DNA of 64,000 bases, from the NCBI RefSeq assembly GCF_031769215.1, contig NW_026781968.1, positions 620,001-684,000 on the forward strand, given 5' to 3'. The position numbers are program-made. Positions within the stretch are counted from its first letter, which is position 1. Each line of letters opens with the position of its first letter. This document shows positions 24,001-27,000 of this stretch, piece by piece. The DNA is from Ylistrum balloti (Eukaryota).

Positions 24001-27000
24001 ACCAGGACTGACTCTATTTGCTGTGATCTTACAGTTTATCCTAAAGTAATTACAATCTAATTCTGATAGGGAAAGTGTCTTCTACTGATCTACAATTAAA
24101 CCGTGAACAGTTAATGCCTCAAAGGTGGAGAGCATGTCCAGCCAATGTTTCACGGCATGATTCTGACACTAAGGTGACCGCAATTAAACTATCTGTCTGA
24201 TAAGCCAGCCGGTCACATTTAACACAAATTATGTTCTACACTTGAGTGACAAATTTCACTATTAACAAATGGGATACATTTCTTTAGAGATTCAATGCAC
24301 GTCAGGTAATCTATGTCACAAGGCCTTCAAATACCTATGTTTATTACATTTCAATTCAAAATTTTATCAATGTTGCCTTATCTAAAATTAAGATTCAGAA
24401 AATAGTCAAATATTTTCATATCAATAAATGATCTCTTATATACATTGATTAAATTGTGGATTAAGAGTGCCTTCAAACTCTTCGAAAAGAAATTTCCCTA
24501 GGAAATTGATGATTTTACAGTATAAGAGTATTCACTGTTTCAGGAGTAGGAGAGTGGAGAGAAGGTGTTGTGTGTAGTGAGCGTCCATCAGGACAGAACT
24601 CCGTTGGTCATGTATTGAAACCTTGCTGTACAGGACTCCAAGGAGAGTGTCAGCTGTTGTCACACAAACATTGCCAGTTTCTGGAGGGAAGCTTTCATGT
24701 CAATGGGCATGAGCATTGCAGCCAAGTATAAAAACAGTTGTTGAATCAAACTTTCATGCACAAGAAATTATGTCTAGACATTGTTTGTTTTGTTGATTTC
24801 TTGATTGCTTAATTTGAATGTTGATACGTAAAGGTTTGTGTCAAATGGATATTAAAGAATTAACAGTATCCTTAGTCTGTACACAAAAAACAATCTTAGA
24901 CTTCTTGAAATAAATTACGTCAAAATAAAAAAAGAAGGGAAAATGATATATGTGGATCTGCCAGAAGGGAAATAACACCTTTTGATACAAATTTCAAACC
25001 ACACAGTTTCCTATTGCTGACTCTCTGTTCATTTTTTCCTCATTAATTTCTGGTTGGTCTTGTCAATATCTAGGTGGATTTGTCCTGATACTATATCCAG
25101 GATATGACATGTCATTAAGAATTAGCATGACCTTTAATTGACTCCATTGACTGTATAACACATTTGGGTAATGTTGAATATTTTAAGCTGGAGAGAAAAC
25201 ACTGAACAAACAAAGTATTATGGTTCTCTCTTTACTATTTGATCACTACAATAACTGCTGAAATTCATTTAAAATTTGTACTAAAATCATGTGAAACCAT
25301 TAACATCTTGTCAAAAACTAGAAATTAATATTTCTAATGTAAACTTTTGTTTATTGGTATATTTTTTAACATAGGATCCCATTGTTTTGCTTCCTGTATG
25401 TTCAAGGTAAATTGTTTGAGCTCAGTGTGTGGGATGGGAGGATTTGAGCCTGACCACACACACCCATGGCTTCCAAGAGACCCTATCCAGTGGTGGAGAT
25501 TGCCTCTGTCTTTAGTCTATCACCATGGGCTGATTCATGCCATCCTTGTAAGCCTTGCTCAGATTCTTCTATTTAGGAAGATCGAACAGACACTTGGCTG
25601 GCTTCGACTCATCATTGTATATCTTATGACGGGTTTAGGTGGGCTGCTGGTGAGTTAAATTGTATAATGGTCAGAACATTTAAGTAAGCATTATCTGTTG
25701 ACTAAAATTTGGTTTTACCACTAGCCAGATAATAATATTGAATAAATATTTTTATCAGGGACTTCCTGAATAGATAGAACTGACCACAGTGGACTTTAGC
25801 TGTAGTTTATCTAATCATCTGTGTAAACTTTCATGAGAAGGTCAGATTCCTTACCTTAATCTGAATTGTCTCTATATATTGATACCAGGTCACTGCTTTA
25901 ATTGTGGTGTGGTTTAGAACAACGGTTGTTGGTATATTTATCTATTTCATAAACGAACATTGGTGATAATATCAATATCTCCGGACATTTAGGGCAGATG
26001 ATTAGACAAGTGTTATGCATCTTACAGAAATCCACTGTCCTCAATTACTAATATATTCAATGCATCATTTATTAATAAAATACCTCAATCATTAATGATA
26101 TATGCTTAATCTACTGTAAGTTTTAAAGTAAGGTTTTGTATCCAGAAACACAACAAATGGTACAACAATAATCAGAATATGTCCTTAATCTGCTGTAAGT
26201 TGTAAGGTTTTGTATCCAGAAACACAACAATTGTAACAATAATACTTACAATACATCCGTGGATGTATTTTTATTTTACTTCCTTGTAAATCTTCCTTTA
26301 CTGAAATTTAAATGAAAATTTTATGAAATGTCAACTACAAAATGAAGTTTTGAATTTGCCAGTTCTGTCTTCCTGTTTCAGACTGCTGCTATATTCAGTC
26401 CCTATATGCCACATGTAGGTGGTACATCGACTGTGTTTGGGATGGCTGGGTTAATCACTGCAGAACTTGTACACTACTGGCACCTTGTCCAAAAACCTGC
26501 TGTGGAGCTGACAAAGATTTTTTTACTTTTAGTCATCTTCCTTATGTGTGGCACTCTCCCATACATTGACAATTACAGCATTGTGTCTGGATTCCTCTTA
26601 GGTTTCTTCTGCTCTGTCTTCTTTCTTCCTTTCATGTCCTTCAGACAGCAACAGAAACATTGCCGAATCCTCCTCCTTTGTCTTGGTGGACCCGTCATAT
26701 TTCTGGTGTATTTTGTTCTGTTTTATGTTTTCTATAGAGTACAAACATTAGAAGAATGCTCAGGATGTAAACTGTTTAACTGTGTGCCATACACAAAAGC
26801 AATGTGTGATAACTTATTGTGATGAATAATTCTTAAGGACATAATAATATGTGTTTGTGACAGATTTAAAAAAATTATTTTAGATGTAGTATTGGCGTTG
26901 AAAGCTGTTTTCCTGAAAGAGCCAAGAATTTTTGCACCCCATAACCAGGATTGTTAGAGTCCTTGATGTATGCTCCAAACTTTAACAGACGTAAGATCAA

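Follow-up and report, generated by a model that had tools for sequence, protein, structure and literature searches.

iRhoms are textbook pseudoproteases that acquired a role in regulating ADAM17/TNF and EGFR signalling. Two accounts of the family define them by an extended N-terminus, by the iRhom homology domain (IRHD) and by an 'invariant proline', such that a GPx motif replaces GxS (Zettl 2011, PMC3149277; Dulloo 2019, PMC6451368). A third account calls the IRHD 'unique for iRhoms' and describes within it an unstructured stretch whose conserved two-Trp motif, named iCERES (W538 and W545 in the mouse iRhom2 protein), is required for export from the endoplasmic reticulum (ER) to the Golgi (PMC8233286). 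Here, we describe LOC132544063, a gene of the scallop Ylistrum balloti that lies in a 64,000-nucleotide stretch of contig NW_026781968.1 (positions 620,001 to 684,000, forward strand; hereafter the window), which is AT-rich and contains zero N. We found that the product of this gene is an IRHD-bearing pseudoprotease of the rhomboid-like superfamily and falls outside the canonical RHBDF family. When all of the evidence is taken together, it is likely that LOC132544063 encodes a conserved, catalytically dead, IRHD-bearing rhomboid, which would belong to a separate and ancient lineage and work as a non-cleaving scaffold.

The final exon of the gene, exon 10, occupies nt 26382-26822 of the window on the forward strand, begins directly behind a ttcag acceptor, and translates into 146 residues followed by a stop codon. 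Its product is identical (100%) to residues 808-953 of the public Y. balloti protein, which is 953 residues long and carries the database label 'uncharacterized protein'; the DNA is accordingly of molluscan and not of human origin. Exon translations were searched singly, and full-length comparisons used this public record (P0002). On its own, exon 10 matches the Pfam Rhomboid family (PF01694) over profile positions 59-141 of 143 (E 1.2e-07), and the open reading frame (ORF) that holds the exon upstream of it (25338-25658) matches positions 3-58 (E 8.7e-09). Both pieces exceed the 22.6-bit cut-off of the family, the domain runs unbroken across exons 9 and 10, and the public protein scores 71.5 bits against the same profile (E 1.1e-19, positions 3-141 of 143). 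In a Pfam scan of eight exon-sized ORFs, matches were found only in these two rhomboid exons. When we compared exon 10 with the chains of the Protein Data Bank (PDB) using phmmer, it matched only human iRhom1 and iRhom2, in four distinct chains (E 1.4e-13 to 4.7e-13). Exon 10 ends an intact, conserved scallop gene.

The active rhomboid signature comprises GxSG in transmembrane helix 4 (TM4), a His in TM6 and an Asn in TM2, the last of which belongs to the oxyanion hole, as in GlpG; at these three places, LOC132544063 has G-G-T-S, Ile and Val. Its TM4 motif reads HVGGTSTVFG (nt 26412-26441), for which the human iRhom1 and iRhom2 counterpart is EVGPAGSQFG, and its TM6 motif reads IDNYSIVSG (nt 26565-26591), for which the counterparts are IDNFAHISG in iRhom1 and IDNIAHIFG in iRhom2. 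In the phmmer alignment, a Gly codon (26421-26423) occupies the position of the iRhom proline, a Thr codon, ACA (26424-26426), that of the catalytic Ser, and an Ile codon (26580-26582) that of the TM6 His. TM2 reads HxxxxHxxxV, with the Val (nt 25548-25550) at the position of the oxyanion Asn. The same motifs read HVGGTATVFG and IDNYSIVSG in the Mizuhopecten orthologue and HVGSTATVFG and VDNYSIISG in the Argopecten orthologue, and since the changes recur in both, they represent a conserved state rather than a sequencing slip. Two homologue searches gave 4 and 10 proteins, and the Pro and the His are both missing in every named orthologue with a readable motif, a set that spans bivalves of five families and a chiton; the approximately 15 closest matches to exon 10 all lack both residues as well. 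Among the orthologues, the Ser position holds T (scallops and Saccostrea), V (Mactra and the chiton) or M (Mercenaria), which argues that no nucleophile is under conservation there, and the His position holds I, M or L. Small or hydrophobic residues are tolerated at the site, and the remainder of the IRHD and the core is well conserved. Judged from its sequence, the LOC132544063 protein is, with very high probability, a catalytically dead rhomboid-like protein. A preliminary description of this DNA had read G-G-T in place of GPx, had noted the replaced TM6 His and had called the product a dead enzyme; the translation and the alignment to the iRhom1 and iRhom2 chains bear out both motif readings, and the third claim gains the Val in TM2 and the variable Ser position as further support.

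The overall layout of the protein is that of an iRhom. TM1 starts at residue 546 of 953, which leaves an N-terminus of about 545 residues encoded by exons 1-5, and the prediction continues with a Cys-rich IRHD, seven TM helices in all and a C-terminal Cys motif. In an alignment of 19 diverse sequences, four canonical iRhoms included, we found that the NxWIGP...GAxxxPCMR block, the GCC, PCC and WR motifs, twelve IRHD cysteines and four C-terminal cysteines are invariant or nearly so. We modelled the structure of a natural 370-residue Argopecten isoform that extends from the IRHD to the C-terminus, using 71 aligned relatives, and obtained a mean predicted local distance difference test score (pLDDT) of 93.5 and a predicted template modelling score (pTM) of 0.89. 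The best PDB matches of this model are human iRhom2 and iRhom1 (E 5.5e-20 to 7.4e-19; template modelling score, or TM-score, 0.72-0.79, query-normalised), with a TM-score of 0.79 over 408 columns for iRhom2; the TM-score against GlpG is about 0.3 and covers the core only. In the model, the TM4 helix (236-252) opens with the Thr and the Ile lies within the TM6 helix (285-302), so that both sit where the catalytic dyad is expected. The iRhom architecture that had been claimed from the sequence thus holds, given the long region before TM1, an IRHD with all of the shared invariant cysteines and the structural matches, and the model of the TM4/TM6 site that had been proposed as a check puts the Thr and the Ile at the expected dyad positions.

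To place the protein among its relatives, the exon was searched against 1.84 billion cluster representatives, where 912 proteins matched at an E of up to 0.001, and the 150 best of these were taken. Among 157 proteins classified by the two motifs, 58 have Ser and His and 38 have GPx (35 of them with the His), the remainder being in other dead states. Residues 602-944 are covered by 93 proteins, and after removal of P0003, which is an isoform of P0004, of P0018, whose domain is doubled, and of P0148, which has a motif gap, 90 rows remained, 72 with an IRHD and 18 without. A quick tree was made from all 90 rows and a careful tree from 54 representatives picked from each of its clades; the two agree on the clade layout. 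We found that the IRHD-bearing proteins form a single clade (support 96/93). Within it, a molluscan-type clade (100/99 in the 54-row tree) joins P0065 and P0080 (99/93), then P0044 and P0071 (100/96) and then P0062 (99/97), and the 14-row clade that holds the scallop-type clade (99/97) contains zero GPx proteins. The GPx proteins group with P0031 (EVGASGALYG and IDNFSHIGG; 100/99) and then with further Ser/His-bearing proteins (99/95). Since Ser/His-bearing proteins branch between the molluscan and the GPx clades, the two inactivations would be independent. The approximately unbiased (AU) test rejects a joint clade of 9 molluscan-type and 14 GPx rows (log-likelihood difference 161, p-AU 1.7e-74).

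Named proteins from amphioxus, Callorhinchus, Protopterus, two hemichordates, two sea urchins, a beetle and three crustaceans were added. The GPx clade takes in every one of these, and the molluscan clade remains outside it. With named deuterostomes and arthropods inside the GPx clade and the molluscs outside, the split should be older than the divergence of protostomes and deuterostomes. Three further GPx rows, P0154, P0140 and P0097, adjoin the arthropods and may, at a guess, come from other protostomes; in the protein-atlas neighbourhood of P0154, Arthropoda and Chordata are commonest. The TM2 Asn is kept in all 18 of the active rows that lack an IRHD and in none of the 20 GPx rows or the 16 scallop-side rows. 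Together, these findings make it highly probable that the scallop lineage is separate and was inactivated independently. As for the second, separately degenerated iRhom lineage that the preliminary description had suggested, the separate degeneration stands, as the phylogeny it had called for puts the scallop lineage outside the canonical GPx clade behind several well-supported branches and the AU test rejects the joint clade. The term 'iRhom lineage', on the other hand, is loose, as the scallop lineage is a sister branch in a wider radiation of IRHD-bearing rhomboids and not a branch of RHBDF.

Several features of this analysis speak against such a separation. The tree sample is biased, consisting of the 150 best exon matches and a few named additions, and most of its rows are cluster representatives without a taxon name. 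Support is only moderate (93/69, 88/83 and 91/63) at the deeper nodes that lie between the two clades. The group for the AU test was chosen after the tree had been seen, although the hypothesis itself came from the refutation test set out in the preliminary description. The moderate deep nodes and the nameless active-looking rows would fit a reading in which independent loss is an artefact of the tree, with one ancient inactivation and active-looking proteins that were either misplaced or had regained their residues. We consider this improbable, since the decisive nodes, those that join the GPx proteins first with P0031 and then with the next Ser/His group, are strong. In addition, P0080 reads GASG and P0062 and P0071 keep the His inside the scallop-side clade itself. 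Switches between active-looking and dead states number at least five on the 54-row tree and at least seven on the 90-row tree, and a joint regain of Ser, His and Asn appears implausible. The IRHD indel, scored as the GCC-to-PCC spacing and used as an independent character, agrees with the tree.

Like the canonical iRhoms (RHBDF1, RHBDF2 and Drosophila rhomboid-5), the scallop protein has a long cytoplasmic N-terminus, an IRHD between TM1 and TM2 with an equal cysteine pattern, a rhomboid core with TM7 and a C-terminal Cys motif, and it has lost the catalytic residues. Unlike them, it lacks the GPx proline, and the residue that follows its Gly is Thr, not Ala or Ser; it also lacks the TM6 His that nearly all GPx proteins keep. 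Its IRHD is short and lacks a stretch of about 45 residues that bears the two Trp, as seen in exon 8, which is without this canonical insert. The spacing from GCC to PCC is 38-49 residues in all 16 scallop-side rows, compared to 79-114 in all 20 GPx rows, and W-x6-W-P occurs in 16 of the 20 GPx rows and in none of the 33 other dead IRHD rows; counted for the 16 scallop-side rows, it is likewise found in none. From the spacing of the Trp, we infer that W-x6-W-P probably corresponds to iCERES. The Pfam family iRhom1-2_N (PF12595), which scores 49.5 bits in the amphioxus iRhom, gave no match at E up to 0.1 in the six proteins of the scallop lineage that were scanned, P0002, P0005, P0013, P0008, P0080 and P0044. 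Near the N-terminus, an FFG..D....W motif is common to canonical iRhoms and most non-GPx IRHD proteins, and it is degenerate in three scallop sequences (SIFHS or SIFQS).

The scallop protein thus shares with the iRhom (RHBDF) family the long N-terminus, the Cys-rich IRHD and the loss of the catalytic Ser and His, and because the GPx proline, PF12595, the two-Trp export stretch and a placement within the canonical clade were all tested and not found, it is not a canonical RHBDF protein. One could still regard it as an ordinary molluscan orthologue of the canonical iRhom in which the proline and the His were substituted late. The automatic NCBI names of the orthologues ('inactive rhomboid protein 1-like' and '2-like') say as much, and the protein is built like an iRhom overall and has an iRhom as its best structural match. 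No molluscan name, and hence no named canonical molluscan iRhom, appears among the best 120 of 1469 matches to the amphioxus GPx query P0109 (9 of them without a name), which would also fit; the best 120 were chordate-dominated, however, and were filled by vertebrates, so the molluscan absence there says little. With the lineage outside the clade of named deuterostome and arthropod iRhoms, the joint clade rejected by the AU test, and the IRHD short and free of W-x6-W-P in a protein without PF12595, we consider late substitution in an RHBDF orthologue quite improbable.

If the scallop protein is instead taken as one branch of a wider IRHD-bearing family, its nearest points of comparison include proteins that look active. 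GxSG and the His are kept in 19 of the 72 IRHD rows (for example, P0050, P0025, P0055, P0056, P0042, P0043, P0028, P0021, P0036 and P0077), and 15 of these 19 also keep the TM2 Asn. Proteins of this kind, among them P0050, P0025, P0055 and P0056, have a short IRHD with the same cysteines as the scallop protein, a C-terminal Cys motif and an equal TM1-TM2 loop length, and align with it without a break over residues 596-952; unlike it, they look catalytically competent, with GxSG, His and mostly Asn. Such active-looking IRHD proteins conflict with the statement in PMC8233286 that the IRHD is unique to iRhoms. A literature search turned up no paper that deals with molluscan iRhoms or with IRHD proteins whose active site is intact, although the original family survey or the supplements of papers may contain such sequences. 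The secretase-type rhomboids without an IRHD (RHBDL-like, 18 outgroup rows) share the Pfam Rhomboid core, the WR motif and TM7 with the scallop protein; unlike it, they align only over TM1 and the core, and all 18 have GxSG, His and Asn. The protein-atlas neighbour cluster of P0056 is commonest in Chytridiomycota (score 0.92), which is a weak lead.

Other relatives occupy further states. P0031 (622 aa), the sister of the whole GPx clade, keeps Ser and His and has a long IRHD (88-residue spacing) in which W-x6-W-P is present, with Thr in place of the TM2 Asn; on these features, it has the look of an intermediate step from active rhomboids to iRhoms. A dead clade on the scallop side of the tree, comprising P0035, P0041, P0054, P0061, P0064, P0085, P0095, P0052, P0046 and P0094 (support 100 in the 90-row tree), likewise has an IRHD and lacks the catalytic Ser. 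Unlike the scallop protein, it reads G-[AS]-[DN]-P ('GADP/GANP'), with Asp or Asn at the Ser position and then a Pro one residue later than in GPx, and the His is present in 7 of 10; this clade appears to be a further independent inactivation. P0071 (615 aa), a near outgroup of the scallop clade, reads HVGACGAISG and VDNFAHVGG, with Cys at the Ser position and the His kept, and is a possible Cys-His variant.

It is very improbable that the scallop protein still cleaves within the membrane, with the TM4 Thr or some other residue as its nucleophile. What counts against a dead enzyme, which is judged so from its sequence, is that a Thr nucleophile is not chemically impossible; Thr is chemically near to Ser and takes the place expected of the Ser at the N-terminal end of the TM4 helix, and the rhomboid fold, the WR motif and the TM6 GxxxG are retained. 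The general base His is replaced by Ile and the oxyanion Asn by Val, however, and the nucleophile position is not conserved among the orthologues. Structures of GlpG S201T are deposited as an 'active site mutant' (2xtu, 2xtv). This GlpG mutant is reportedly inactive.

For the dead, IRHD-bearing scallop protein that we favor, we propose a mode of action by analogy, to which we give an even chance of being correct. A lineage found in bivalves and a chiton would have split from the GPx-iRhom line before protostomes and deuterostomes diverged and would have lost activity independently. The scallop protein itself has kept the framework of TM1, a luminal IRHD rich in disulphides, the WR motif, the six-helix rhomboid core with TM7 and the C-terminal Cys motif, with all three catalytic-site residues replaced (Ser by Thr, His by Ile and the oxyanion Asn by Val). 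By analogy with iRhoms and derlins, the protein may then work as a non-cleaving membrane scaffold, in which TM1 and the rhomboid core would hold the transmembrane helix of a client while the IRHD contacts its luminal part and steers its fate in the early secretory pathway. Because the export-motif stretch and iRhom1-2_N are both missing, the protein would be expected to act mainly in the ER and not as a forward-trafficking receptor of the iRhom2 type. In its manner of working, the scallop protein is probably iRhom-like. On the other side of the balance, the missing stretch is linked to iCERES through the Trp spacing (W538, W545) and not through a printed motif, and the function is argued by analogy.

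LOC132544063 comprises 10 coding exons, all flanked by ag and gt and without a frame break, as established by exact matches of the public protein in the three forward frames and by reading across the junctions. A decaying pseudogene or an artefact of the gene model, in which the odd motifs would be meaningless, might suit a record named only 'uncharacterized protein', but is highly improbable for ten open exons with ag/gt junctions and an exact match to the public model, sixteen conserved cysteines, a pLDDT of 93.5, and identities over the IRHD and core (residues 585-953) that range in bivalves and a chiton from Mizuhopecten (86%), Argopecten (82%) and Mactra (54%) to Saccostrea echinata (53%), Mercenaria (50%) and the chiton Liolophura (47%). 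Tegillarca and Saccostrea cucullata are further named relatives with partial coverage.

All exons of this intact gene lie on the forward strand. Exon 1 (15113-15163) runs from Met1 to residue 17, an exact match to residues 1-17 of P0002, and is followed by a gt donor. Exon 2 (18676-19929) encodes residues 18-435, the bulk of the long cytoplasmic N-terminal region, which is poorly conserved; it matches P0002 exactly, and a Pfam scan of its ORF (18586-19941) matched no family. Exon 3 (20688-20765), with ag and gt flanks, encodes residues 436-461, exon 4 (20973-21081) encodes residues 462-497 and the first base of a split codon, and exon 5 (21795-21961) encodes residues 498-553, with the start of TM1 at its 3' end. 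Exon 6 (22620-22791) completes TM1 and opens the luminal IRHD; it is here that N599, W601, G603, P604, G613, A614 and C619 are invariant alignment columns, and from here the NxWIGP...GAxxxPCMR block runs on into exon 7. Exon 7 (23257-23421) carries the IRHD portion that has the GCC motif (C643/C644) and C660, and exon 8 (24544-24725) the part with the PCC motif (C693/C694), C676, C701, C709 and C724. Exon 9 (25407-25649) contains the end of the IRHD (C729 and C734), the WR motif (nt 25494-25499), TM2 and TM3, and exon 10 (26382-26822) contains TM4 to TM7, the C-terminal tail with its four Cys and the stop codon.

The rest of the window holds a few other features. Intron 1 contains a large minisatellite (15613-17804) with approximately 76 copies of a 29-bp unit at an 88% match, as well as a smaller array (15228-15418) with 6 copies of a 31-bp unit, and the two arrays together account for the pronounced AT skew (0.30) at 16-18 kb. 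On the reverse strand, the ORF at 35498-35788 has a weak match, under the cut-off, to the helix-turn-helix domain of Tc3-type transposases (PF01498, E 1.5e-4) and is probably a decayed Tc1/mariner element, judging from this similarity. Two forward-strand ORFs about 9.5 kb apart, at 42909-43316 and 52500-52787, share 41% identity over 56 residues (E 2e-15). A Pfam scan of both found no family, and they may belong, as exons, to genes duplicated in tandem downstream of the rhomboid gene.

The molluscan lineage lacks the proline, the His and the export stretch, and active-looking IRHD proteins exist beside it, which suggests that catalysis was lost after this architecture had arisen, and that it was lost repeatedly. 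We therefore put forward, tentatively and at slightly less than even odds of being right in full, that the IRHD arose in active rhomboid proteases and that the family lost its active site at least five times, with the GPx iRhoms being one such loss and the molluscan Thr/Ile lineage another, split off before protostomes and deuterostomes diverged. If this is true, P0031, with Ser and His, a long IRHD and the two-Trp motif, would be a living intermediate beside the canonical iRhoms. Automatic names such as 'inactive rhomboid protein 1-like' merge genes that are not orthologous. The molluscan and canonical proteins also offer natural contrasts for the role of the proline and for those iRhom functions that need only the IRHD and the core. 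If the IRHD did arise in active proteases, molluscs may carry two non-orthologous IRHD pseudoproteases that differ in their trafficking.

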